A stretch of 64,000 nucleotides of DNA, taken from the IMG/VR virus record IMGVR_UViG_3300028584_001242. One strand, given 5' to 3'. Both the position numbers and the translations under genes were made by a program. This DNA comes from a virus (Duplodnaviria; Heunggongvirae; Uroviricota; Caudoviricetes). The notes below the pieces were generated by a model. It worked only from the letters and a program-made list of their open reading frames with translations, was not told where the DNA came from and made no database searches. Below are positions 1 through 60,918 of the stretch, piece after piece. Position 1 is the first letter of the stretch; every line of letters begins with the position of its first letter.

Positions 1-1214
1 TTGAGTTTTCACCAACAGGTGAAATAATAACAGCCAATGAGAAGTTTTTAAATTTAATGGGATACTCCCTAAATGAAATAGTAGGGAAAAAACATTCTAT
101 ATTGTGTGACAAACTATATGCAAACAGTGCTGATTACAAAAAGTTTTGGAATAAGTTAGAAGCGGGTGAATATATATCTGATATGTTTAAAAGACTTGAT
201 TCAAAACAAAAAGAAATATGGCTAGAAGCTTCTTACAATCCTATATTTGATAATAACAACAAAGTAGTAAAAGTAATAAAATTTGCAAACGATATTACTA
301 GATATGTAGAGGAAAAAAATGAAGATAAAAGTAAATTAGATGCCCTTAATTCATCTATGGCTGTTATTGAGTTTACACCTGAAGGTATTATTTTAAATGC
401 AAACAATAACTTTTTATCAACAACTGGTTATACATTAAAAGAAATAGTGGGTAAACATCATAATATATTTTGCGAAAAAGCGTATAGTCTTCATTCAGAA
501 TATAAAAGGTTTTGGCAAGATTTAAAAAATGGGCAATTTTTTAATGGTCAATTTAAAAGATTAAATAAACAAGGTAATGATATATGGCTTGAAGCAACTT
601 ATAATCCAATAAGAGACGAAAATGGAAACGTAGTTAAAATTGTTAAATTTGCAAGTGACACCACAAAATTAGTTAACCAATTAGATGCTCAAAAGAAAAG
701 TGCAGAACTTGCATTTTCAATATCAAATAATAATAAAGAAACAGCACAAATCTCAGTAACTACAATAAATGAAACAAATAATGAAATGACAAACATTATA
801 AAATCAGTCAGTGCCACAGAGATTCATTTAAAGTCATTAGAAAAACAATCTGAAAAGATTAAAATGATATTAAATGCTATATATAAGATTGCAACACAAA
901 CTAATTTGTTAGCGTTAAATGCTGCAATTGAAGCCGCCAGAGCTGGAGATGCTGGAAGAGGTTTTGCAGTAGTGGCTAAGGAAGTAAAAGAATTATCAGG
1001 CAATACAAGTGACTTAGTTAAAAGTATTTCTGAAATAATAGAGGAAATTAATAAAGAAACAGAATGTGCGGTTAAACAAATGGAAAGTGTAACTCAGAAC
1101 ACAGAAAGAAGTGTAACATTAATGATTGAAGTCGAGCAGTTAGTGACTGAAATAAGTATCGGCTCTGATAAAATATTATCAGCTATTGCCCAATTATCAA
1201 AAGAGTTAAGTTAA
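1..1214 (+). CDS. methyl-accepting chemotaxis protein with tandem PAS domains (aerotaxis-like), 5'-partial
   Basis: The reading frame is open from nt 3, upstream of the listed ATG at 57. Repeated PAS blocks ([43 protein letters not shown]) precede a C-terminal MCP signalling motif [32 protein letters not shown] terminator follows. Confidence 0.8.
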
Positions 1215-5666: not shown

Positions 5667-5743
5667 TGGTGGGACTTGCAGGACTTGAACCTGCGACCTA
5701 CCGATTATGAGTCGGTTGCTCTAACCAACTGAGCTAAAGTCCC
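5667..5743 (-). tRNA. tRNA with CAU anticodon (Ile2/LAU-type or elongator Met), 77 nt, CCA encoded
   Basis: Full cloverleaf: acceptor GGGACTT/AAGTCCC, D-stem GCTC/GAGC, anticodon stem ACCGA/TCGGT with loop CTCATAA, T-loop TTCAAGT. The anticodon loop and T-stem are close to E. coli ileX as recalled from memory. Confidence 0.85.
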
Positions 5744-6033: not shown

Positions 6034-6118
6034 TGGTGCCCGGTGCCAGACTCGAACTGGCACTCCTTGCGGAAAGGGATTTTAAGTCCCTCGTGTCTAC
6101 CAATTTCACCAACCGGGC
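6034..6118 (-). tRNA. tRNA-Leu(UAA), 85 nt with long variable arm, CCA encoded
   Basis: Acceptor GCCCGGT/ACCGGGC. Anticodon stem AGGGA/TCCCT with loop CTTAAAA. Variable arm TTCCGCAAGGAGTG. T-arm GCCAG-TTCGAGT-CTGGC. Confidence 0.85.
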
Positions 6119-8145: not shown

Positions 8146-8535
8146 TTAACCAATGGTGAAAATACAAGCCAATTTTTTATCTGGTTCGATTTCGTTGTCC
8201 CAAATGTTTTCATTGTCAAAATGTTTGACATTTTTCTTTTTCAACAAAGCATGAAGTTCTGTAAAATTGAACTGATAAGGCTTATCGAGTTCTGGTTCAA
8301 CACAAAACTGTTCACCATCCAAATGATAGATGAAGAAATAACCGGGCAAAACAGCCACAAAGGTAATCGTCCAAACCCGCTCATCACCCATAGGTTCATC
8401 ACAATGAGGATCAACCTCAGACATGTAGGCATACTCGACGCCATTCACCGTCAGGCGTTCTGTGTAAGCAGAAGCCTTACGCTCTTTGCAACGTTCTACA
8501 ATGGCATTAACGATTTTCTGATTGTTGGTCTTCAT
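8146..8535 (-). CDS. hypothetical protein, 129 aa
   Basis: A TTTACT-N17-TATAAT promoter with extended TG lies upstream at plus 8556-8590. Confidence 0.55.
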   Translation of the reverse strand: MKTNNQKIVNAIVERCKERKASAYTERLTVNGVEYAYMSEVDPHCDEPMGDERVWTITFVAVLPGYFFIYHLDGEQFCVEPELDKPYQFNFTELHALLKKKNVKHFDNENIWDNEIEPDKKLACIFTIG

Positions 8536-8700
8536 GATGAGACACCAAGGCTAACTGATTTGTGTGCATTATATCAAGTTCGCCTTGTCGAGTAAAGTAA
8601 AAACTCATTTTTGATGACTTAAATCACCTGTCGGATCATAGACCAGAAGAATACGTGTTCCGGGTGGAATTTTAAAAATAAAATTCCTCAAATAATTGGC

Positions 8701-8949
8701 TTAATCGCTGATAAGGTCGTTAACATTATCCAACGTCTTAAACAGTTGAACAATAGCATTACAGTAGCATACGACGAAAGCCTCAACCACCACAACAACA
8801 CTCAAAGCAACGGCCATAAGGTGAGTGCCCAACCAAATTTGATAAACAACACCAGCCGAAGTGGACAGAATCAAGATGCTTGCCAAAACGGTCAAGGCAA
8901 GTTTAAGGTATTTCTGATTGCCGGGAACGCTTTCCGATTGATTTTTCAT
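8701..8949 (-). CDS. small membrane protein, 82 aa (2 TM)
   Basis: Hydrophobic segments. GAGG RBS. Confidence 0.5.
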   Translation of the reverse strand: MKNQSESVPGNQKYLKLALTVLASILILSTSAGVVYQIWLGTHLMAVALSVVVVVEAFVVCYCNAIVQLFKTLDNVNDLISD

Positions 8950-9966: not shown

Positions 9967-10533
9967 TTAATTACGATATAAATCTGTTGGTGGCTGGTAA
10001 GTTGCCTCAATGACTACAAATAAATTATAGCTGTTCATTGGGGCTTGAACTTCGACCACCACATCACCTTTTTTGTATTTAGCCCCTGATGGTTTTGTTA
10101 AGTCTTCATACCCTGCAGCAAGAAGTTCACTTTTCGCTTTGTCATAAACTGATAGAGCATTTTTATAAAGTTCTGCTTTGTCAGCTAAATAAAGATCCTC
10201 TGAACGGACTACATCACTAAATGTATAAGTGATTTTACCACTTCTTACGATACCATTAATATACTCATATTCGACTTCTGGGTTAATACGTTCGCCTTTT
10301 TCTACGACAAGTGTTTTCGACAAGATACTGTCAGTATTTGTAGAGACATCAGTAACGGTAATTTGCTTTCCATCTTCTGATGAACGGTAGACTTTGAAAG
10401 ATGGATATTTACCCACCTGTGAAGCCATCTGTGAGCCATTGACAGGGTAGTTAACAGACGCCGGGGCTTCGGCATACACTTGCGAACAAAGTGCGAATGA
10501 CAGGCCAATGAAAGCCAATAAACGATTAATCAT
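9967..10533 (-). CDS. secreted protein with signal peptide, 188 aa
   Basis: N-terminus MINRLLAFIGLSFALCSQVYA. AGGAG RBS. Confidence 0.6.
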   Translation of the reverse strand: MINRLLAFIGLSFALCSQVYAEAPASVNYPVNGSQMASQVGKYPSFKVYRSSEDGKQITVTDVSTNTDSILSKTLVVEKGERINPEVEYEYINGIVRSGKITYTFSDVVRSEDLYLADKAELYKNALSVYDKAKSELLAAGYEDLTKPSGAKYKKGDVVVEVQAPMNSYNLFVVIEATYQPPTDLYRN

Positions 10534-10566
10534 AAAAAAACACTCCTATAAGAAAATAAAATTTAG

Positions 10567-10597
10567 AAACAAAAAAGCCCCATCGCTGGGGCTTTAT
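10567..10597 (-). terminator. terminator AGCCCCA-tcgc-TGGGGCT
   Basis: Hairpin with a T-run on the minus strand. Confidence 0.55.
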
Positions 10598-10598
10598 A

Positions 10599-10865
10599 TT
10601 ACGAACTTTTTACAGTAAAAGAGTCCGATGTCACTTCTGAACCATCAAGAGAAAGTGCGATTCGATAACCAGAGTAATCGTAATCATAGTAATCTGAGCA
10701 ACTAAGCTCAAACGACACATCTTCTTTGACAATGGACACAACAGCAGCCCTCAACTCAACATCAGCTTCCATCATACCAATAATGGAATCTTTCAACAGT
10801 TCGGTAACAGCCGAACGCACATCAACATCAGTTTGTAGCAAGTGAATCAGTTCTGTTTTGGTCAT
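10599..10865 (-). CDS. acidic hypothetical protein, 88 aa
   Basis: GAGGAT RBS. Confidence 0.5.
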   Translation of the reverse strand: MTKTELIHLLQTDVDVRSAVTELLKDSIIGMMEADVELRAAVVSIVKEDVSFELSCSDYYDYDYSGYRIALSLDGSEVTSDSFTVKSS

Positions 10866-10996
10866 AATAGTATCCTCAGTAGACTATCTAAACGAAAGCT
10901 TGAGGTATTCGACTACAGAACGTTAACGGTATTGATATTAGCAAAGAAATGAAAAAACGTCAAGCTCTTTCAGTTTCTTGCTATATCAATTTCCTA

Positions 10997-11898: not shown

Positions 11899-11917
11899 CG
11901 TTTGTATCTTAAATTAG

Positions 11918-11990
11918 GAGGACCGACTGGGACTCGAACCCAGAATTCATCCGGTTAAGGACGCTTGTTCCCGTTAAACACCACCGGCCC
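11918..11990 (-). tRNA. tRNA-like gene with a contracted 6-nt anticodon loop (possible non-canonical tRNA or pseudo-tRNA)
   Basis: Acceptor GGGCCGG/TCGGTCC with two G-U pairs, D-arm TGTT-TAACGGG-AACA, canonical T-arm CTGGG-TTCGAGT-CCCAG. The anticodon arm folds only as CGTCC-TTAACC-GGATG. It has its own consensus promoter and terminator. Confidence 0.5.
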
Positions 11991-14927: not shown

Positions 14928-15734
14928 TTAGATCTCAATCATGTCTAAAAGAAGCTTGTCACGCTGAGTTGGAATGGTGGCAGGTTTCACGCCAGTCATA
15001 AAACCAATCAAATCGACAGTCAGATTTTTAAAAAGTTCATCTTTGGAAACAAACTTAAAAACATTCATAATTTTATCAACTTTCATCGGAGAGATATTAA
15101 AAATAATACCATCCTCTCTTGGTTGATAGTTGTAGTACAGATGGTTCTTATCATACCCAATAAAAACGTTAACGACCTCGTTCTCATAAATAGAAGAGAC
15201 TTTTACTCGACTGATAAATATGTCGTCATGGCCTTCTCGTTTCAGAATATAAGTGGAATGTTCAAAACGACTGTTTTTATATTGACTATTCCTTATGAAC
15301 TCATACTCATTGTGCAATGTGCCTTTTTTACCTTGAATCAAACCAATTGAAGCATTCAACATCCCCAGCTCATTTTTAGGGGCTGGGTAATAATAGGAAG
15401 CCATGTAAGCCACTTGCAAAACGTGATTGCTCAAATCCAAAAATTGTTCAGGAATATGGATGTTCAGGCTTTCAATATAGGAGCTATTGAACAACATGAT
15501 GCCTTTATTGTCGTCGGCAAGAATACCAATATCTTCGCCAGCATAACGAAGAAGATCATAATCACTATCAACGAAAAAACGATTCCACGTTTTTCGGTCA
15601 GGTGTGGCTTTCATCATATCTCGCATAAACCAAGCCAAACGATTATTCACAGGACAGAGAGCATTGATATAGAAACTATCAATCTTGTCTGAAAAGTATT
15701 TTCGCGTTGCGGTAATGGGATTGCTGATAGCCAT
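14928..15734 (-). CDS. hypothetical protein, about 268 aa
   Basis: Internal start MAISNPI with a perfect AGGAGGA RBS. The listed 382 aa ORF is a run-on. Confidence 0.55.
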   Translation of the reverse strand: MAISNPITATRKYFSDKIDSFYINALCPVNNRLAWFMRDMMKATPDRKTWNRFFVDSDYDLLRYAGEDIGILADDNKGIMLFNSSYIESLNIHIPEQFLDLSNHVLQVAYMASYYYPAPKNELGMLNASIGLIQGKKGTLHNEYEFIRNSQYKNSRFEHSTYILKREGHDDIFISRVKVSSIYENEVVNVFIGYDKNHLYYNYQPREDGIIFNISPMKVDKIMNVFKFVSKDELFKNLTVDLIGFMTGVKPATIPTQRDKLLLDMIEI

Positions 15735-15822
15735 AAATCCTCCTAATTTGGCGTAATTATAGCACAAAATTAAGTTTAATGGAACAAAAAACCGCCAAGA
15801 AGGCGGCTTTTGATAGTATTTT

Positions 15823-16317
15823 TTAAGCAGCTTCGGCAACCATTTCGCGTTTTTTCTTCCGTTCTTCTCTTTTTCTTGCAATGACAACAGGATCTCGACG
15901 TTCACGTTTTTTTTGCTTTTTGGCTTCCATCCTTGCCTCAAAATCGAGCATTTGGACAGCAAGTTCATCCAATGTGATAACCTGATGACCTTTTGTAGTA
16001 TTGCAGTGACAGCACATCGGCTGAAGGTTTTCAAGTTCATTGCTACCGCCATTTTTCTTAGCAGTAATATGGTCAATAGTCATCAAAACCATATCGTCAG
16101 TAAACAAGTCCCAATGCCCACCACCTTGGCTATCTCGGGAGAAAATCAACCGATTTCCGACATTCTGGCAGTTGGGCGTTACACATGCCAAGCCTTTATG
16201 GAAAAAGACACGAAGTCGTCGGTGATTTTCGAAAGCATGAATACCATTGGCTGAACGTTCACGAATAAACTTATAATTACAGCTCTGAATGTTATCACCT
16301 TTCTTGAAAGTCTTCAT
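15823..16317 (-). CDS. HNH endonuclease (homing-endonuclease-like), 164 aa
   Basis: Motif DHITAKKNGGSNELENLQPMCCHCN. Basic C-terminal tail. Confidence 0.8.
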   Translation of the reverse strand: MKTFKKGDNIQSCNYKFIRERSANGIHAFENHRRLRVFFHKGLACVTPNCQNVGNRLIFSRDSQGGGHWDLFTDDMVLMTIDHITAKKNGGSNELENLQPMCCHCNTTKGHQVITLDELAVQMLDFEARMEAKKQKKRERRDPVVIARKREERKKKREMVAEAA

Positions 16318-22946: not shown

Positions 22947-23819
22947 TTAAACAGTCATAACCATCGGCATTTCAGCAACAACCTTCTTGTATTCATCCGT
23001 GCCATATTTCAAGAAGTAGGCTTTGCGAGTGCTACCTTTGATTTTACTAGTCACAGTTTCAACCAGAACAGCACCAGTCAAGCTGCCTTGCACTTTGTAA
23101 AGACCATCTTCAAAGCTATCCACGTCATGGCTGAACACATTACGGTCATCACGCTCAACACTGGCCGAGAACATGGTTTGTCCTTTGGGTGCCTTGTGTG
23201 GCTGGAAAGCAAACAGCTTGTGTTCGTTCACATTGACAACTTTGAACGCTGGCAGCTTGGCTTTCACTTCAAAGTATTCGTCACCGATACGAACAACATC
23301 CACAGTAGACAGTGCAGATTGGTCGCCTTTGACGTAATACAAGGCTTCTGTCTGGCTTTGGAAGTAATGAACGCCATCAATGTCTTCGGTCGTAAAAACA
23401 CTGAATACCGGGCCTTGGCTGATACGTTTTTCTGGAACGATGAAGTCAGGATTCATACTTGCTTCAAAGTTGGTATTTTTTTGCTTTGGCGGTTCCAACA
23501 ACATCTCTTTCGGAATGATATAGACATTCAACAGAGCTTCATTTTTGGAAGCTGTTTTGGTGATGTTGAACAACGTGTAGTTACCTTCACTTTTGTAGGT
23601 ATCTTCAACCGACTTCCATTCCACACGGTTGACAGTGTTCAATTTAGACAGTGCCTGTGCGAAAACCTTTTTGTCCAACAACATCGAAGCACGACTGTTG
23701 TTAACATCACGGAAATAGGTGTTTACGAAATAAACCACATCATTGAAGGTCTTACCATGATGAATGATCGCAATCGAAGCAACAGCATTAGGGCGACGGT
23801 TTCCGTTAGTGTGGAACAT
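22947..23819 (-). CDS. hypothetical protein, about 290 aa
   Basis: Start MFHTNGN after a GAGGAT RBS. Confidence 0.55.
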   Translation of the reverse strand: MFHTNGNRRPNAVASIAIIHHGKTFNDVVYFVNTYFRDVNNSRASMLLDKKVFAQALSKLNTVNRVEWKSVEDTYKSEGNYTLFNITKTASKNEALLNVYIIPKEMLLEPPKQKNTNFEASMNPDFIVPEKRISQGPVFSVFTTEDIDGVHYFQSQTEALYYVKGDQSALSTVDVVRIGDEYFEVKAKLPAFKVVNVNEHKLFAFQPHKAPKGQTMFSASVERDDRNVFSHDVDSFEDGLYKVQGSLTGAVLVETVTSKIKGSTRKAYFLKYGTDEYKKVVAEMPMVMTV

Positions 23820-26097: not shown

Positions 26098-26394
26098 TTA
26101 TGCTTTGTGAGGTCGCCACATACATTGAGAAATAGGCAAACCAATTTTTTCGTGGGTGTCATTTTCATAAACATCAAGAACGGTGGAGTTAATCTGAATC
26201 TCTTTATAGATAACAACGTTTTTGTGTTCATAAGTCACCAACGATCCAGAATGGCAAATAATATCTTGTGGCCCGTAGTCACGGCTAGAAGATATAACAC
26301 GATTTTTAGGATCTTTCGCATTTGGTTGCTGACGATCAAAACCACAACCGGAGAGTGCCAATGAAATAGCTAATCCAACTAATATTTTTTTCAT
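26098..26394 (-). CDS. lipoprotein, 98 aa
   Basis: Lipobox LALSGC. GGAG RBS. Confidence 0.55.
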   Translation of the reverse strand: MKKILVGLAISLALSGCGFDRQQPNAKDPKNRVISSSRDYGPQDIICHSGSLVTYEHKNVVIYKEIQINSTVLDVYENDTHEKIGLPISQCMWRPHKA

Positions 26395-26695: not shown

Positions 26696-26815
26696 TTGCA
26701 GCTCCTTAATAGAATGTTTCAATAGGTGAAGTATATCAAAAAACACAATCTTCGTAAAGTTATTTTAGCTAAAAAAAAGCCCTAGAAGACTAGGGCAATT
26801 TTATCAAACGGTGAA

Positions 26816-27937
26816 TTACTCGGGAATATCGACTTGTTTACGAGCAAACACCATGATAGCGGCTTGCTTGTAATCAATTTCATTGCCCGAATACTTACTG
26901 ATCAAGACATGCAGCAACAATGGAGCCACTTCTTTGGCTTTACGAGCGTAATCGCCACGTTCCAAACCTTTGTGTTCTTCATAGAAACTTTCAACGGTGC
27001 GAACAAGGTAGTGGTAGCTTTTACGGGCGTAGTCTTCTACTTCATCCAAGCGAGCCAGAATTTCAGCCAGTGGGAAGTTATCGCTGTGCGTCCGGTAATG
27101 ATACAGCGAACGAATTTCGTCCAAAATTTCGTGAAGAGTTGCTTCATAAATAACCTGACGCTCTTTCGACCGATCCTGAATATTGACCACTGCCGACATT
27201 TTCAGGTAAGGGATTGTTTTGACCTTATACATATCAGGGCCAAATTCAACTACATAACCCTCAATTTCAGGGTCATTAACGTTGAGTTCATTGATAGGGA
27301 TACGTTTCACCAAATGGGCCGCAATAACCGGGTATTTGGCAGCAAATTCAGCAGAACGAATATCGACATAAGCACCAGTGCTCATATCACGGGCTTTCAG
27401 GATATGAACAGAATAATCAGTGTATTCAATGAACACGCGGTTCTTGGGCGTGGTCAATTCCAAGTCAACCGAAACACCAGTGCGGGTCAACCGTTCAATA
27501 TCAGCATGCAACTCAGGGCTGATAGATTTTTCAACAAGGTCATAATTGGCAAAAGTTGGCTTCTTTTTGCTCTTGTAGTAAAGCGTATCGTTAACTGGCG
27601 AGATATAGCTGGTCAGCAGGGAACCATCTGGCTTCAAGTAAGCATGATCCGCTTCTTCGGGCTTGATCTTCTGAGTTTCTGGAGTTTCACCGAGCGAGAA
27701 GAATTTCTGCATTGGCAATGCCACCAGCACTGGCTCATCACCGCCCATGTAGAACATGACCCCACGGCAATCTTTAGCACCCGGAAGTTTGAATTCAGAG
27801 TGCTTTGGAATGTCATAGTTGAAGACACGGTAAGTCCCGCCGTCTACTGCTGAGGTTTCATCCCCGTATTTAAAAGACCCCGGATTAGTAACCAACAGGT
27901 TCATCAGTTGGGCATACAGTTCTTGTTGATAAGTCAT
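26816..27937 (-). CDS. RNA ligase, Rnl1 family (T4 gene 63-like), about 373 aa
   Basis: Motif I KPDGSLL. The N-terminal block YRVFNYDIP...CRGVMFYMGGDEP...QKFFSLGE is colinear with T4 Rnl1 as recalled from memory. Confidence 0.8.
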   Translation of the reverse strand: MTYQQELYAQLMNLLVTNPGSFKYGDETSAVDGGTYRVFNYDIPKHSEFKLPGAKDCRGVMFYMGGDEPVLVALPMQKFFSLGETPETQKIKPEEADHAYLKPDGSLLTSYISPVNDTLYYKSKKKPTFANYDLVEKSISPELHADIERLTRTGVSVDLELTTPKNRVFIEYTDYSVHILKARDMSTGAYVDIRSAEFAAKYPVIAAHLVKRIPINELNVNDPEIEGYVVEFGPDMYKVKTIPYLKMSAVVNIQDRSKERQVIYEATLHEILDEIRSLYHYRTHSDNFPLAEILARLDEVEDYARKSYHYLVRTVESFYEEHKGLERGDYARKAKEVAPLLLHVLISKYSGNEIDYKQAAIMVFARKQVDIPE

Positions 27938-27994
27938 GTGAATCTCCACAATTAAATTTGTCTGAATGTATTATATCAAAAACTGATTTTTAAT

Positions 27995-28312
27995 TCAAAC
28001 TTTTCTTCGTGCTTGCATGATTTTTCCAAGCATATTGCCTTGAATGTCGCCCTGTTTAGGCCAAGCCGACATTTCAAATTTGTTATCCATTGTGACATCA
28101 GAACCATCAAAAACAAAAACAACATCGTCAAAGCTGATTTTCTTTTCAGCAGCAGCCAAGCGGAATGCAGTGATAACACTGGCCGTCGCAGTGGTGTAAC
28201 TCACATCACCAAACTGACGAAGAGAAATAAGCTCGTCAACAAGAGACACACAAAAGCCATCTGGGGTTGCAACACCATTTTCTGGGTCATAAACAATTCG
28301 AAATTTAGTCAT
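27995..28312 (-). CDS. hypothetical protein, about 105 aa
   Basis: Start MTKFRIVYD. GAGG RBS. Confidence 0.5.
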   Translation of the reverse strand: MTKFRIVYDPENGVATPDGFCVSLVDELISLRQFGDVSYTTATASVITAFRLAAAEKKISFDDVVFVFDGSDVTMDNKFEMSAWPKQGDIQGNMLGKIMQARRKV

Positions 28313-28403
28313 AGAAACCTCTGTGTTAATCAGTTGATTATACATGAAATATTGTTTTCAAACAACGAAAAAGACAGTCAAAGACTGCCTTTTATTGTGT
28401 TCG

Positions 28404-28787
28404 TTACGATTTTGCGTCCATCGCTTCTTTCTGTTCAAGATAGAAGACATACAGGCGAGTGTATTCAATGGCTGCAGAAAAACGAGAATAGTTACGTTCA
28501 GGCTCAGAATATGCTTCTGGTTCTTCGGTTATCCACCAAGAGTTGAAAAGGCTACGCAGTTTTTGAGCCAGATCCATCATAACAACAGCAGAAACGTCTG
28601 GAAACATCATAGCAACCAGTTGAAAGTTCGGTGGACAAGCAATGGTTTCCTCAATGCCACAAGAACCATCTTCGACCAAAGACCAACAAACAACAGACGT
28701 ATCTCCTTTACGGAAACGTGCGATGAAGTTCAAAAAATCTTTGTTTGTAATATCTACATCGGCTGCTTTTTCACGAATAGTTTTCAT
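28404..28787 (-). CDS. hypothetical protein, 127 aa
   Basis: GAGG RBS. TGTATAAT -10 box upstream. Confidence 0.5.
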   Translation of the reverse strand: MKTIREKAADVDITNKDFLNFIARFRKGDTSVVCWSLVEDGSCGIEETIACPPNFQLVAMMFPDVSAVVMMDLAQKLRSLFNSWWITEEPEAYSEPERNYSRFSAAIEYTRLYVFYLEQKEAMDAKS

Positions 28788-28906
28788 TGAGTAAACCTCT
28801 GTTTTGAATGGATTGATTATACATCAAACACTCAACATTAACAACTAAAAAATAGATTATTATAAAAAAAGCCCCGCAAATGCAGGGCTTCTTTGTTCAT
28901 GCTGAG

Positions 28907-30028
28907 TTAAACGGGCGGGGACAAGTCGCCAAGCTCAATTTGTTCCAACGACCAATCCACCAGATGGTTTTTAGAGTAGTGATACAAGTAGTCGTTTTTG
29001 TGACCACGAATCGCCCCCATAACAAAACCAAAGTGTTTATGGCCTTTGAGCTGAATTGCAGCAGCTTTCACGTCAACACCTTTGAATTCAGCAGCAATAT
29101 TATCAACTTCTTTCGACAACGCTTCAATCGAAGCTTTGATAGCGTCATTGATTCGATAAATCTCACTCAAATCAGCCGTTGGCGAATTCAGCGACAAATA
29201 AGCGATGTAATCATCAAGTTTTTCTTCAACCACCAACCGAGCAATATCACGCTCCCGAACAAAGCTAACCGCATGATGGAGGTTCATATACCATTTGGTT
29301 TTGATTTTGATCATGTTACCGTTAACGAATTGAATAACATAGCCTTCAATCCCTTCAACAGTGTTCAGCGACTTCAACAGGGAAGCCAAATCAAATTCTT
29401 CACCAAACAGAGGCTTGTTAACAGGAATATCAAACAACAACGCCAGTTGGTCTTTTTCAGCAGGCATTAAGTAATCGCCTGTGATGTTGTGACGAACATG
29501 AAGCAATGTCATGTTGTCTTCGTCATAACGCAAAACGATACGATGTTTTGGCGAAGTAAATTCAAAAATAGGGGTCAGTTGGGCCTGAGAGCAATATTTA
29601 GTGAACTCGTAGTATTTCTGGTTGCGAGACACAAAGCCTTCTGCCGAAACAGCCACATCCGATTTGAACGACTTCTTGGATTTAGCAAAGAATTCGCCTT
29701 TGAACAGCCCTGTGGTAATCATGGAGCCATCCATTTTATCAAACCCGGCTACCATCGTGCTCCAATCCAAAACGGCTGGCTGGACTTCTGCCCGCTCTGC
29801 CAAGTTAAAGAATTTGTGCAATGGACGCGACAGGATTTTACCATTGTCGTCAAAAGTAATACCGCGAGCTTCTTTTTCAACCGGAGTGTTGAAAGAGTCA
29901 CCGTTGCTGATGTTGTAGCAAACGATATCGGCACCGTTATCCTGTTTATTAACAGAAATATAGGCACGGTCTTTGATATGAGGAATCATATCATCAAGGG
30001 TTTCAATACGCGGGAAGATGCTGGACAT
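28907..30028 (-). CDS. RNA ligase, Rnl1 family, second paralog, 373 aa
   Basis: Motif I KMDGSMI, block ARGITFDDNGKILSRPLHKFFNLAE. Same architecture as 26816..27937. Confidence 0.75.
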   Translation of the reverse strand: MSSIFPRIETLDDMIPHIKDRAYISVNKQDNGADIVCYNISNGDSFNTPVEKEARGITFDDNGKILSRPLHKFFNLAERAEVQPAVLDWSTMVAGFDKMDGSMITTGLFKGEFFAKSKKSFKSDVAVSAEGFVSRNQKYYEFTKYCSQAQLTPIFEFTSPKHRIVLRYDEDNMTLLHVRHNITGDYLMPAEKDQLALLFDIPVNKPLFGEEFDLASLLKSLNTVEGIEGYVIQFVNGNMIKIKTKWYMNLHHAVSFVRERDIARLVVEEKLDDYIAYLSLNSPTADLSEIYRINDAIKASIEALSKEVDNIAAEFKGVDVKAAAIQLKGHKHFGFVMGAIRGHKNDYLYHYSKNHLVDWSLEQIELGDLSPPV

Positions 30029-30155
30029 AGTTCAAATCTCTACTGGTTTGAGTTGGGCTATTATATCGAAATACAGCAGTGAAGACAAGTCAAAAATGAT
30101 ATTTTTCAAATAAAAAGCAGCCCAAAAGGACTGCTGATTAATAACCTTGTTGAGC

Positions 30156-31568: not shown

Positions 31569-32417
31569 TTACTGCTTTGGTTGAACTACGGGTTGCGGGA
31601 CTGTTACCCCTTGCGGGAGCGAACCACCCACTACGACCAGCATATTAACATTGTCTTTCTTTTTGACCACTTCAACAATTTCTTTCTGAATTTCGATTTC
31701 TCGACTTTTCAGATATTGTTCCGGTGACATGTTCATTTTAGTCATGTATTCATTGTCAGCGAGGGCTTTGTTGGTTTCAGCCTGCTTACGCTTTGTCTCG
31801 GCGTCTGCACGGGAATCTTCAGTCAAAGCTCGTTGAATTTGTGCTTCTGTTCGTGCCGTTTCAGCCAGCACTTCATCAGGAGGCATGATAGCACCGATAG
31901 TCACCGCAAGAATACGAACCGGAATGCCTTTTGCAACCACAATGTCAACCATTCGCTTGTAAACAGCATCTTCACCAGAGTCAGTAACTTCTTGTTTCGT
32001 GGTCAACTCTTTAACTGTATGTTGTCGAGCAAAGTCTCGCAGCATGTTTTGAAAGTCTTTTTTCAGGTTGTTTTCATACATGGAATCACCAAACTTCTCA
32101 TGATAGATATAAGCCTGTTCAGGGATGAGTTCATAACGAACAATCGCTTTAAAGTCTACCGGAGTCGAGTTAATGGTTGCCAAATCATTAAACGATTCTT
32201 CTTTTTGAGCAGGTTTAATGTCGTAGATATGCATTGTTGAAGTTGGTGCAATATAGTAACGATCACCACCTTTATACACTTCTTTATCAACACCACCTGT
32301 GGTAAAAATAGGGTGTTTTTCCAGAACGCCAACGAAACCAGCATCTACGGATTCAGAACACCCACTGAGGGCAACTGATGCCAGAAGAACAAGAGAAGCA
32401 AAAATCTTTTTAATCAT
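31569..32417 (-). CDS. SPFH/band-7 family lipoprotein, 282 aa
   Basis: Lipobox LSGC. Coiled-coil region TEAQIQRALTEDSRADAETKRKQAE typical of prohibitin/HflK-like proteins. Confidence 0.65.
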   Translation of the reverse strand: MIKKIFASLVLLASVALSGCSESVDAGFVGVLEKHPIFTTGGVDKEVYKGGDRYYIAPTSTMHIYDIKPAQKEESFNDLATINSTPVDFKAIVRYELIPEQAYIYHEKFGDSMYENNLKKDFQNMLRDFARQHTVKELTTKQEVTDSGEDAVYKRMVDIVVAKGIPVRILAVTIGAIMPPDEVLAETARTEAQIQRALTEDSRADAETKRKQAETNKALADNEYMTKMNMSPEQYLKSREIEIQKEIVEVVKKKDNVNMLVVVGGSLPQGVTVPQPVVQPKQ

Positions 32418-49597: not shown

Positions 49598-49670
49598 GGC
49601 TGTATGATGGGACTCGAACCCACGACTACCGTTTTTCGACGGAGTTCTGCCGACTGAACTACAAACAGCC
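49598..49670 (-). tRNA. tRNA-like gene with a contracted 6-nt anticodon loop, CCA not encoded
   Basis: D-arm GTTC-AGTCGGCA-GAAC (A14, G18/G19), T-arm GTGGG-TTCGAGT-CCCAT, 6/7-bp acceptor. The anticodon arm folds only as CCGT-CGAAAA-ACGG. It lies immediately downstream of basic-peptide gene 3. Confidence 0.45.
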
Positions 49671-50906: not shown

Positions 50907-51494
50907 CTACTTCACAAAAAAGAACTCTTCATAGATTTTGTATTCGGCAATTGACTCTTTAATATCTTCAAGTCCACGGTGTTTTTCTTGCTTCTTAACC
51001 ATCATGCCCACTTCTGGTTTCACCCGCCATACGATTTCCTTGATGGTGCTTACGTCAATAATACGGTAATGCAAGATGCTGGCAAAGGTTGGCATTTGGG
51101 CCATGATAAAGTTGCGATCCAGCGAAACACTGTTACCACAAATAGGGCTAGAGCCGGGAGCAATGTTGAATTGAGCGATATACGCCAAAATCATTTTTTC
51201 TGCTTCGGTCAACGAAAAAGGCGAAGCCTCAACACGATCCCACAACCCACTGGTGATGTGCATGTTACGAACGTAATCATTAGCCAGTGCTTTGGCTTCT
51301 TCAACGTCATGATGAATAACCACTTCAAAGCCTTCATCAATGATATTGAATTTCGAATCGGTAATGTGAATACCGATTTCAAGGATTTTGTGATACTGAG
51401 CACCCGACAACTTGTCAGCAATATCCAAGCCAGTTGTTTCAAGATCCACCCAAATAAGGAGATCTTTCCGTAGTTCAATAGCCGTCATAGTCAT
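50907..51494 (-). CDS. orn: oligoribonuclease (DEDDh 3'-5' exoribonuclease)
   Basis: Motifs LIWVDLETTGLD, PICGNSVSLDRNF, HYRIIDVSTIKE and H.GLEDIKESI are colinear with E. coli Orn as recalled from memory. AGGAGTGA RBS. Confidence 0.85.
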   Translation of the reverse strand: MTMTAIELRKDLLIWVDLETTGLDIADKLSGAQYHKILEIGIHITDSKFNIIDEGFEVVIHHDVEEAKALANDYVRNMHITSGLWDRVEASPFSLTEAEKMILAYIAQFNIAPGSSPICGNSVSLDRNFIMAQMPTFASILHYRIIDVSTIKEIVWRVKPEVGMMVKKQEKHRGLEDIKESIAEYKIYEEFFFVK

Positions 51495-59962: not shown

Positions 59963-60409
59963 TCAAGTGATTACATAATCACCTTTGACCTTGAAAGCCG
60001 TCTCAATCGGCTCAAAAGCGGCCTTCTTTTCGATGACAACAGCTTCTGGCACGTTGTGGGTGTTGGCGAAATCGTTTTCCATTTCGAAAATTCGAATATC
60101 AATACCCAGTTCTTTGGCGAAAGAAACCAGCGAATCCATTTCAACCACTTTGGTAAAAGTGTTACTCACTACTACCGAATCACCATCCAGCAAAGCTTGA
60201 ACCGCTTTCTTGACACACTCGTCTTTGGCAACCTGATGGAAAGCGAAGTCGAATTTGTAAACGCCATCTTGACCAACAAAGAAACTATCGTTTTCAAAAT
60301 GCTTGTAGCCGAAAGGAACAAAAGAACCCGCGAAAGTGGATTTGCCACTGCCCGAGTGACCACGTACCAAAACCAGTTCTTGATTGGTTGCTACTTTGAT
60401 AGTTTGCAT
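59963..60409 (-). CDS. P-loop NTPase, polynucleotide 5'-kinase-like (kinase-only module), 148 aa
   Basis: Walker A motif VRGHSGSGKSTFA followed by ENDSFFVGQDG, which resembles the T4 Pnk kinase-domain N-terminus as recalled from memory. No phosphatase domain. Confidence 0.6.
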   Translation of the reverse strand: MQTIKVATNQELVLVRGHSGSGKSTFAGSFVPFGYKHFENDSFFVGQDGVYKFDFAFHQVAKDECVKKAVQALLDGDSVVVSNTFTKVVEMDSLVSFAKELGIDIRIFEMENDFANTHNVPEAVVIEKKAAFEPIETAFKVKGDYVIT

Positions 60410-60435: not shown

Positions 60436-60918
60436 TTATAGGTCAACTGTTAAGAATTTTACCAACTTTTCGGTCGCAAGTCTAGCAAAATATGCCTGAA
60501 TTGCTGTTCTTTCTTCCAAATGGGTGCATGACATAAAGAAGCTGTGCAATTTGCGATCTTGGCGTGAGTAGATGGCGAAATAAGCATGGACCATTCCTTT
60601 CGAGTTGTCTTTATCCACATAACCCGTGGTCGCAACACCATAATCAGTATCAAAAAGCTCAACAACGCCTTTCGCCATTTCAATGGCTGTTTGTTCACTG
60701 ACGCAATCGCATGTTTCAGCGTTCGCTCGATCAACATTCAAAAACTTGACTTTCATGTCGATGTTGTAGGCAGTAATACCACCTGCGAAATACTTTGAAG
60801 ATCCTGCAACTGCGGACATATGAGCCTGCAGATAGCCACTGGTGAGGCTTTCAGCAACCGAGATGGTTTCACCTCGTTTCAACATAAATTCTTTAATTAC
60901 TGATGCCAATTCTTGCAT
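60436..60918 (-). CDS. CinA C-terminal domain protein / NMN deamidase PncC-like, 160 aa
   Basis: Motifs TISVAESLTSGYLQAHMSAVAGSSKYFAGGITAYNIDMK and AKGV..LF.TDYGVATTG. AGGAG RBS. Confidence 0.8.
   Translation of the reverse strand: MQELASVIKEFMLKRGETISVAESLTSGYLQAHMSAVAGSSKYFAGGITAYNIDMKVKFLNVDRANAETCDCVSEQTAIEMAKGVVELFDTDYGVATTGYVDKDNSKGMVHAYFAIYSRQDRKLHSFFMSCTHLEERTAIQAYFARLATEKLVKFLTVDL

Follow-up and report, generated by a model that had tools for sequence, protein, structure and literature searches.

Why would a single phage keep two RNA ligases of one family in the same neighbourhood of its genome? The question is raised by a stretch of 64,000 nucleotides (64 kb) of viral DNA assigned to the Caudoviricetes (IMG/VR record IMGVR_UViG_3300028584_001242), here called the window, in which two genes resemble that of Rnl1, the RNA ligase of bacteriophage T4 (gp63, RnlA). 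A first-pass annotation had proposed two Rnl1-family open reading frames (ORFs) at this locus, and both are indeed present, on the minus strand and with 373 residues each. Evidence from Pfam, the PDB and AlphaFold2 (AF2) models describes them as follows.

26816..27937, minus strand: ligase A, an RNA ligase from a small subfamily of Rnl1 that is restricted to phages, encoded by an accessory cassette gene (373 residues)
28907..30028, minus strand: ligase B, an Rnl1-family RNA ligase of a large subfamily found in metagenomes and jumbo phages (373 residues)

We consider it probable that these are two catalytically competent and non-redundant tRNA-repair ligases of the Rnl1 type, which come from deep subfamilies and have been kept by selection. 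The genes lie about 1 kb apart, with two small ORFs of 127 and 105 residues in between. The longest reading frame of ligase A reaches a GTG codon at 27949, and the ATG at 27937 has GGAG before it; the gene callers of public contigs also give a protein of 373 residues. Both genes occur on two independent SRA assemblies, with proteins identical to those of the window. A search for near-identical DNA among deposited phages gave no match to the window. Its genes are short and tightly packed (91 of 112 simple ORF calls are on the minus strand), its guanine-plus-cytosine (GC) content is 32-43%, and its source is probably a very large uncultured phage.

Family, fold and active sites of the two ligases

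Both proteins match the Pfam family PF09511 (RNA_lig_T4_1) above its gathering cutoff of 28.3 bits, A with 34.4 bits (E=2.7e-8) and B with 95.1 bits (E=7.3e-27), as well as PHROG 562, 'RNA ligase and tail fiber protein attachment catalyst' (2e-45 for A, 3e-72 for B). The resemblance is far stronger than chance would produce. A phmmer search of the PDB matched T4 Rnl1 to A over residues 4-339 (2e-33) and to B over residues 34-275 (8e-27). The AF2 model of A has a confidence (pLDDT, predicted local distance difference test) of 93.2, that of B one of 90.4. When they were compared with the PDB by Foldseek, T4 Rnl1 was the top match of both, which upholds the earlier assignment to Rnl1 and not to Rnl2 or another clade. 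The E-values for A were 5.6e-26 for T4 Rnl1, 4.7e-11 for the LIG domain of fungal Trl1, 3e-7 for archaeal Rnl3 and 2e-4 for Rnl2; those for B were 1e-22, 3.7e-12, 2.3e-10 and 1.9e-6, respectively. Both models align with T4 Rnl1 over about 377 columns, and this match also ranks ahead of that to Naegleria Rnl5.

Compared with T4 Rnl1 (PDB 2C5U, 5TT6, 9DO4), A and B have nearly the same length (373 residues versus 374) and the same two-domain layout, an adenylyltransferase domain with the Rnl1 N-subdomain followed by an all-helical C domain. A shares only 29% identity with the T4 protein and B only 34%, the latter over the nucleotidyltransferase (NTase) domain only. Because it is the domain attached to the NTase core that defines a family of RNA ligases (PMC6379707), we compared profiles of the C domains. 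The C domain of A matched the T4-type profile with a probability of 99.4% in hhalign (E 4.8e-22, positions 3-115 of 120, 102 columns), that of B with 98.2% (E 5.8e-14, positions 7-93 of 120, 80 columns), and the two matched each other with 98.9%. The C-terminal domain expected of tRNA-specific ligases is thus homologous to that of T4 Rnl1 in both proteins, and the models are helical from about residue 256 on. The Pfam family T4_Rnl1_C gives only a sub-threshold match to A (E=0.0066) and none to B. B is the more divergent copy: the first ~31 residues of T4 Rnl1 and the last ~27 of the T4 C domain have no detectable homologous counterpart in it. As judged from these profiles and models, both ligases carry an all-helical C domain of the Rnl1 type, the domain that confers on T4 Rnl1 its specificity for breaks in the tRNA anticodon loop (PMC6379707). 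The LIG domain of fungal Trl1 (Rnl6), the second-best structural neighbour of both models, has the Rnl1-like adenylyltransferase domain in common with them, but carries a C-terminal module with no relation to the C domain of Rnl1 (PMC6379707).

The motif I strings that had been read from the sequence, KPDGSLL in A and KMDGSMI in B, are confirmed. The N-terminal block described as common to both and to the T4 gene 63 ligase is likewise present in the two proteins (DCRG...LPMQKFFSL in A, EARG...RPLHKFFNL in B), with a correction to its wording: ARG stands in place of CRG in B, and KFFSL in place of KFFNL in A. Motifs III, IV and V are all found in A and B, and neither copy is a pseudo-enzyme. 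In a three-way alignment with T4 Rnl1, both proteins conserve all 12 of the residues that we take, from the mutagenesis work of the Shuman laboratory, to be essential in the T4 enzyme (R54, K75, F77, K99, D101, G102, K119, E159, E227, G228, K240 and K242). Among those in the N-terminal subdomain, R54 and K75 are reported as essential (PMC6379707) and contribute to ATP binding together with F76/F77 (PMC6379707); the counterparts of R54, K75 and F76/F77 are R58, K78, F79 and F80 in A and R55, K72, F73 and F74 in B. For the remaining nine residues, in the order given above, they are K102, D104, G105, K124, E160, E226, G227, K238 and K240 in A and K98, D100, G101, K118, E156, E228, G229, K241 and K243 in B. 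These counterparts are invariant among 41 aligned relatives of the A type and 68 of the B type, with the exception of K98 in B, which is nearly so, and of K124 in A, which is not listed as invariant.

The ratio of nonsynonymous to synonymous substitution rates (dN/dS) is low for both genes. Relative to the orthologs on the related contig L146, A has a ratio of about 0.055 and B one of about 0.085, while B relative to its ortholog on L143 has 0.049; synonymous divergence (dS) is near saturation, with a proportion of synonymous differences (pS) of about 0.6-0.65, which makes the ratios approximate, yet they are far below 1. The substitution patterns indicate that strong purifying selection keeps both ligases. 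We conclude that the two proteins are very probably active RNA ligases of the Rnl1 type.

Beyond the residues they have in common, the families differ where the NTase domain meets the C domain. There, the conserved residues are R258 (93%) and R260 (100%) in the B family, D255 and K258 in the A family, and K253 (100%) in the T4 type. This hints that the three types may recognise different RNAs or RNA ends.

Ancestry, distribution and history of the pair

The first-pass annotation described the two genes as duplicated and diverged paralogs. Taken to mean a local duplication, this is misleading because A and B share only 26% identity and A groups with the T4-type ligases. In an alignment of 177 non-redundant sequences (A-type, B-type, T4-type and other viral Rnl1), the mean corrected distance is 2.52 between A and B, 1.84 between A and T4, and 1.92 between B and T4. 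The quartet that joins A to T4 Rnl1, and B to its relative in Ralstonia phage RsoM2USA, was recovered in 100/100 neighbour-joining bootstraps, which places A nearer to T4-type Rnl1 than to B. We infer with high confidence that A and B represent deep subfamilies of separate lineages that came to lie side by side, and not copies made by a duplication at this locus.

The two subfamilies have very different sizes. The A family is small and discrete, with 49 clusters in a word-indexed search, against 787 for the far larger B family. An exhaustive search of 1.84 billion representatives found 7 A-family representatives above 230 bits, followed by a drop to 164 bits, the level of generic Rnl1. The genomes of 185,579 bacterial and archaeal species contained no A-family member; the scan of them returned only generic Rnl1-like genes of at most 30% identity (in Streptomyces, Kiloniellaceae and others). 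A scan of IMG/VR with A as a single protein gave no match, and an alignment-based scan gave 51 loci, one of which (L014) is a true A-family locus. Two adjacent A-family matches were also seen in the assembly of a fern (Adiantum nelumboides L7F22_017973 and L7F22_017974), and may reflect contamination or transfer.

On other contigs of large phages, A-type and B-type ligases are each found singly and in differing contexts. An A-type ligase lies on a contig of 498 kb (Ga0308164_10000028, locus L005), where synteny suggests that a B-type gene may stand just beyond the fetched locus. Others are next to genes for NUDIX proteins, tyrosyl-tRNA synthetase and Glu/Gln-tRNA synthetase (L009 12403-13659 and 20033-21215; L011), in phages that carry extensive sets of translation-related genes. 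B-type ligases occur on contigs of 290 kb and 437 kb, one of them 7 kb from an Rnl2-like ligase; members of the family were also seen on contigs of 726 kb and 1.54 Mb, unusually long if viral. The closest relative of B in a cultured phage is gp480 of Ralstonia phage RsoM2USA (AVH85407.1; 41.7% identity over 97% of the length), a jumbo phage of 344 kb in which the gene is single, has no A-type partner and is annotated as a hypothetical protein instead of a ligase. In two further loci (L140 and L141), an Rnl1 gene is apparently split into an N-terminal fragment (8524-8838) and a remainder (10001-10969) about 1.2 kb apart, an arrangement that recalls the gene annotated as 'split RnlA' in Acinetobacter phage 133.

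How unusual is the presence of two such genes in one genome? We searched 50,697 deposited phage genomes by tblastn, and found matches to A in 1,566 records, to B in 1,678 and to T4 Rnl1 in 1,864. None of these matched records has a second Rnl1 copy, the match being in exactly one place each time. As a control, T4 MobE was found at 1,974 places in 1,191 records, showing that multiple places per record do get reported. Similarly, among 142 loci fetched with flanks of up to ±10 kb where the contig allowed, two full-length Rnl1 genes were found only on the contigs of this phage itself. T4 has one Rnl1 copy. As far as deposited phages are concerned, a genome with two Rnl1 genes therefore seems to be new. 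Sets of several RNA ligases are known from jumbo phages, such as RtcB, Rnl1 and Rnl2 in BcepSauron and BcepSaruman, or three Rnl2 paralogs in XacN1 (Iyer et al. 2021, PMC7824862), and have been read as non-redundant counter-measures to the tRNA-cleaving defences of hosts (PMC7824862). As in the window, these arsenals combine several RNA ligases with tRNA genes in a large phage (PMC7824862), but they are made of different families or of Rnl2 paralogs, whereas here both ligases are Rnl1, adjacent, and one of them is in a cassette that is gained or lost. The idea of multiple specialised ligases is thus already known for jumbo phages, and the pair is an incremental extension of it.

Related contigs reveal part of the history of the pair. 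The order B, 127-residue ORF, 105- or 106-residue ORF, A is common to the window and to contigs L148 (94% identity for B and 95% for A), L149 (89% and 94%) and L146 (80% and 88%). Because the order of divergence of these lineages is alike for A, for B and for a flanking gene, the data point to a long vertical co-inheritance of the two ligases. B is syntenic in every related contig that we examined (L065, L143, L146, L148 and L149). L143, which is nested within the range from L148 to L146 (88% identity for B), lacks A without any replacement: the homolog of the 105-residue ORF and the gene downstream of A are only ~40 bp apart in the DNA alignment, as compared with 1.26 kb in the window. A is also absent from a more distant syntenic contig, L065 (290 kb, 74% identity for B). 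Most parsimoniously, the five close lineages inherited the pair from a shared ancestor, and a single deletion later removed A.

The arrangement of A and its surroundings can be described with the following elements.

30060..30088, minus strand: sigma-70-like promoter for B, TTGTCT-17-TATAAT (consensus scan, 10/12)
28404..28787, minus strand: ORF of 127 residues between B and A, with no assigned family (no Pfam, PHROG or NCBIfam match)
27995..28312, minus strand: fast-evolving ORF of 105 residues immediately upstream of A (PHROG 12026, unknown function, 1.4e-9)
27970..27998, minus strand: sigma-70-like promoter for A, TTGAAT-17-TATAAT with the TG of an extended -10 (consensus match only, 10/12)
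26779..26796, minus strand: intrinsic-terminator-like hairpin and T8 directly after the stop codon of A, GCCCTAGTCTTCTAGGGC then TTTTTTTT
26727..26742, unstranded: repeat of the -10 promoter region downstream of A (partner at 27967-27982, 1240 nucleotides off; 16 nucleotides, 88% identity)

The layout suggests that A is a self-contained accessory cassette, with its own promoter-like site and its own terminator-like hairpin. In L146, the promoter sequence is kept upstream of A and the same terminator-like element follows the gene. The junction in L143 has a single promoter where the window has promoter, A, terminator and promoter, and the -10 repeats that flank A are a plausible candidate substrate for the recombination behind gain or loss of the cassette. 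On the side of B, a terminator-like hairpin (30116-30135) precedes the promoter-like site. Nearly every small gene between 26000 and 31000 has its own sigma-70-like promoter, in many cases followed by a hairpin terminator. Mobile cassettes framed by promoters and stem-loops occur in the hyperplastic regions of T4-type phages, and the layout of the A cassette resembles them.

The two small ORFs between the ligases have fared differently. The 127-residue ORF is 75-87% conserved in L146, L148 and L149 (dN/dS 0.15) and is replaced in L143 by an unrelated ORF of 159 residues; the window has a distant paralog of it at 2083-2433 on the minus strand (29% identity over 121 residues, E=1.5e-9). The 105-residue ORF has no match in Pfam or NCBIfam, a dN/dS of 0.39, and a homolog that is kept in L143 despite the missing A.

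Healing partners and other genes of the window

Sealing by the ligases would follow the healing of the broken ends, and the window encodes a candidate for one part of this process, together with tRNA genes, tRNA-like genes and two further genes.

59963..60409, minus strand: stand-alone P-loop kinase of 148 residues, candidate polynucleotide 5'-kinase (Pfam AAA_33 3.7e-9, above cutoff)
60436..60918, minus strand: CinA/PncC-like gene beside the kinase (Pfam CinA 1.1e-30)
50907..51494, minus strand: exonuclease of the DEDDh RNase T family (Pfam RNase_T 5.3e-19)
5667..5743: tRNA-Met, CCA encoded
6034..6118: tRNA-Leu, CCA encoded
49598..49668, minus strand: tRNA-like gene with a 6-nucleotide anticodon loop, CGAAAA, and no CCA (Rfam tRNA, 42.9 bits)
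11917..11990, minus strand: tRNA-like gene with a 6-nucleotide anticodon loop, UAACCG, and no CCA (Rfam tRNA, 26.4 bits, below the gathering score)

The best NCBIfam match of the 148-residue kinase is the kinase part of a polynucleotide kinase-3'-phosphatase (6.6e-7), its best PDB matches are the kinase domains of mammalian PNKP (0.003), and a pairwise comparison with the kinase domain of T4 Pnkp gave 3e-5, P-loop included. Homologs of this kinase (34-38% identity) are found 20-40 nucleotides downstream of Rnl1 genes related to B in five loci on five contigs, representing about three sequence types. These loci (L122, L126, L130, L132 and L135, all from IMG/VR) are three-gene cassettes of a metallophosphoesterase, an Rnl1 that is 33-34% identical to B, and the kinase, and look like a heal-and-seal RNA repair module that has been split into separate genes. 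The three genes of such a cassette adjoin one another and include a single ligase; the kinase of the window, by contrast, lies 30 kb away from the ligases, and no homolog of the phosphoesterase is present. The compact cassette, with a kinase of 139 residues, was seen directly upstream of a family-A DNA polymerase (L122 9493-11511; L130 493-2909; also L126, L132 and L135). To judge from these similarities and gene neighbourhoods, the 148-residue kinase is a credible candidate for a 5'-end healing partner.

The tRNAs, the RNase T-like exonuclease and the CinA-like protein fit the sets of translation and RNA-repair genes found in large phages. The two cloverleaf tRNA-like genes could be decoys, pseudo-tRNAs or regulatory tRNA-like elements. 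The remaining features that we annotated in the window are the following.

57..1214, plus strand: protein of 385 residues that combines PAS domains with the signalling domain of methyl-accepting chemotaxis proteins (MCPsignal 3.4e-32)
31569..32417, minus strand: lipoprotein of the Band_7/SPFH type flanking the ligase region (PHROG 200 3.4e-22; Pfam Band_7)
26098..26394, minus strand: ORF of 98 residues with a lipoprotein signal, flanking the ligase region

The chemotaxis-like gene lies in the part of the window with the lowest GC content (0.32), has no close relative in GTDB genomes, and may be an auxiliary gene or mark a boundary with non-phage DNA. Two further ORFs were considered, of which the first was set aside and the second rejected. 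An ORF of 290 residues (22947-23819, minus strand) was examined as a HEPN RNase and has only a sub-threshold match to Pfam Csm6_HEPN (E=0.0037), with no match in the PDB or NCBIfam; it lies 3 kb downstream of A and is conserved in L143, L146 and L148. An ORF of 374 residues (14928-16052) was examined as a third ligase and has no Pfam or NCBIfam match.

Weighing the readings

If both ligases work like T4 Rnl1, the lysine of motif I would be adenylylated, AMP would be transferred to the 5'-phosphate of an RNA end, and attack by the 3'-OH of the other end would seal the break. The helical C domain would direct each enzyme to broken tRNA anticodon loops. A and B would then reseal different tRNAs, or the breaks made by different anticodon nucleases of the host, once the ends have been healed; the 148-residue kinase would supply the 5'-phosphate, and an enzyme for 3'-end healing encoded outside the window would also be needed. 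In terms of history, A is best read as an accessory cassette that the clade inherited from its ancestor and that can be lost, with B at a conserved syntenic position. We attribute the co-retention of the two genes, with moderate confidence, to such a non-redundancy in the tRNAs or nuclease breaks they may serve. Of the two ideas put forward in the first-pass annotation, specialisation for different damaged substrates is accordingly a plausible and the most reasonable one; the other, evasion of ligase inhibitors, is neither supported nor contradicted by the data.

Several observations weigh against this reading, in addition to the near-saturation of synonymous sites mentioned above. Both proteins score below the cutoff of 242.25 bits of NCBIfam TIGR02308, the equivalog family of T4 RnlA (145.8 bits for A, 148.3 for B). 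They are thus members of the Rnl1 family and not orthologs of T4 RnlA by the NCBI criterion, and therefore the function of the T4 enzyme is transferred to them by family, not by orthology. In T4, rnlA is ~1.4 kb upstream of pseT, the gene for Pnkp, and the T4 Pnkp query finds Pnkp 1-6 kb from rnlA in 21 T4-like loci; the same tblastn query finds no T4-type Pnkp in the 64 kb of the window at E<=1e-3. Queries with the Rnl1-linked metallophosphoesterases of L122 and L130 found no homolog in the window either. The step of 3'-end healing is unaccounted for within these 64 kb, which cover only part of the genome. As for the 5' end, the assignment of the kinase is based on weak similarity and on gene neighbourhood, and should be regarded as provisional. 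Finally, the loss of A in L143 shows it to be dispensable at least in some settings.

This last point bears on the simplest alternative, that the two ligases do the same tRNA-repair job and that the second copy adds dosage or robustness. The proteins are alike in domain architecture and catalytic residues, A was cleanly lost in L143, and 'robustness via functional backups' has also been discussed for jumbo phages by Iyer et al. (PMC7824862). However, redundant copies are usually lost or homogenised, while A and B are 26% identical, come from different deep clades, have both been held under strong purifying selection across a synonymous divergence close to saturation, and each belong to a family with its own conserved residues at the domain junction. 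We regard simple back-up as unlikely. A different alternative is that the two activities of gp63 have been split, one protein acting as the RNA ligase and the other mainly promoting the attachment of tail fibres. The name of PHROG 562, which is also that of many GenBank records, mentions both activities, an annotation transferred by family name only, and A is the copy closer to T4 gp63. Mutants of T4 separate the ligase and the fibre-attachment activities of gp63. Nevertheless, every catalytic residue has been kept under purifying selection in both copies, which is unexpected for a purely non-catalytic role, the genes stand among cassettes with early-type promoters and not among tail genes, and A is dispensable in L143. 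Such a split seems to us very improbable, the least credible of the explanations considered. Both alternatives are disfavoured because the catalytic residues are fully conserved and both copies are under strong purifying selection.

It could also be that one of the ligases acts on another class of RNA or on another end chemistry, for example on breaks outside tRNAs, or with a Trl1-like need for a 2'-phosphate. What speaks for it concerns mainly B. Its family has a near-invariant R-x-R (R258, R260) just after motif V, roughly where the RxxR of Trl1 binds the 2'-PO4 (PMC6379707), a tentative match in position; B is without detectable homology to the N-terminal 30 residues of the T4 enzyme and to the last ~27 residues of its C domain, and the window has a kinase with no 3'-phosphatase found. 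On the other hand, T4 Rnl1 is a better fold match to B than Trl1 is, and the phosphatase may lie outside the 64 kb. This explanation appears to us improbable, clearly more so than simple back-up. We give slightly more, though still little, weight to a sharper form of specialisation, in which A and B would recognise different tRNAs or end chemistries, such as breaks with or without a 2'-phosphate or the gapped loops left by RloC-type nucleases, and in which gain and loss of A would track the anticodon nucleases of the local hosts. The tRNA-like genes with 6-nucleotide loops could then be related decoys or substrates. We thus favour two active, non-redundant tRNA-repair ligases of separate origin; if the sharper form is true, the pair would offer a direct handle on how the C domains of Rnl1 read tRNA.

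T4 Rnl1, a standard enzyme of the laboratory, is also the textbook example of how phages counter anticodon nucleases, and the way in which its C domain selects tRNAs is still poorly defined. The conceptual gain is small, multiple and presumably specialised RNA ligases having already been described in jumbo phages. The two new and divergent ligases could nevertheless have useful substrate properties, and the locus provides a comparative system to study the determinants of specificity in Rnl1 and the relation between the ligase repertoire of a phage and the tRNA-targeting defences of its hosts.

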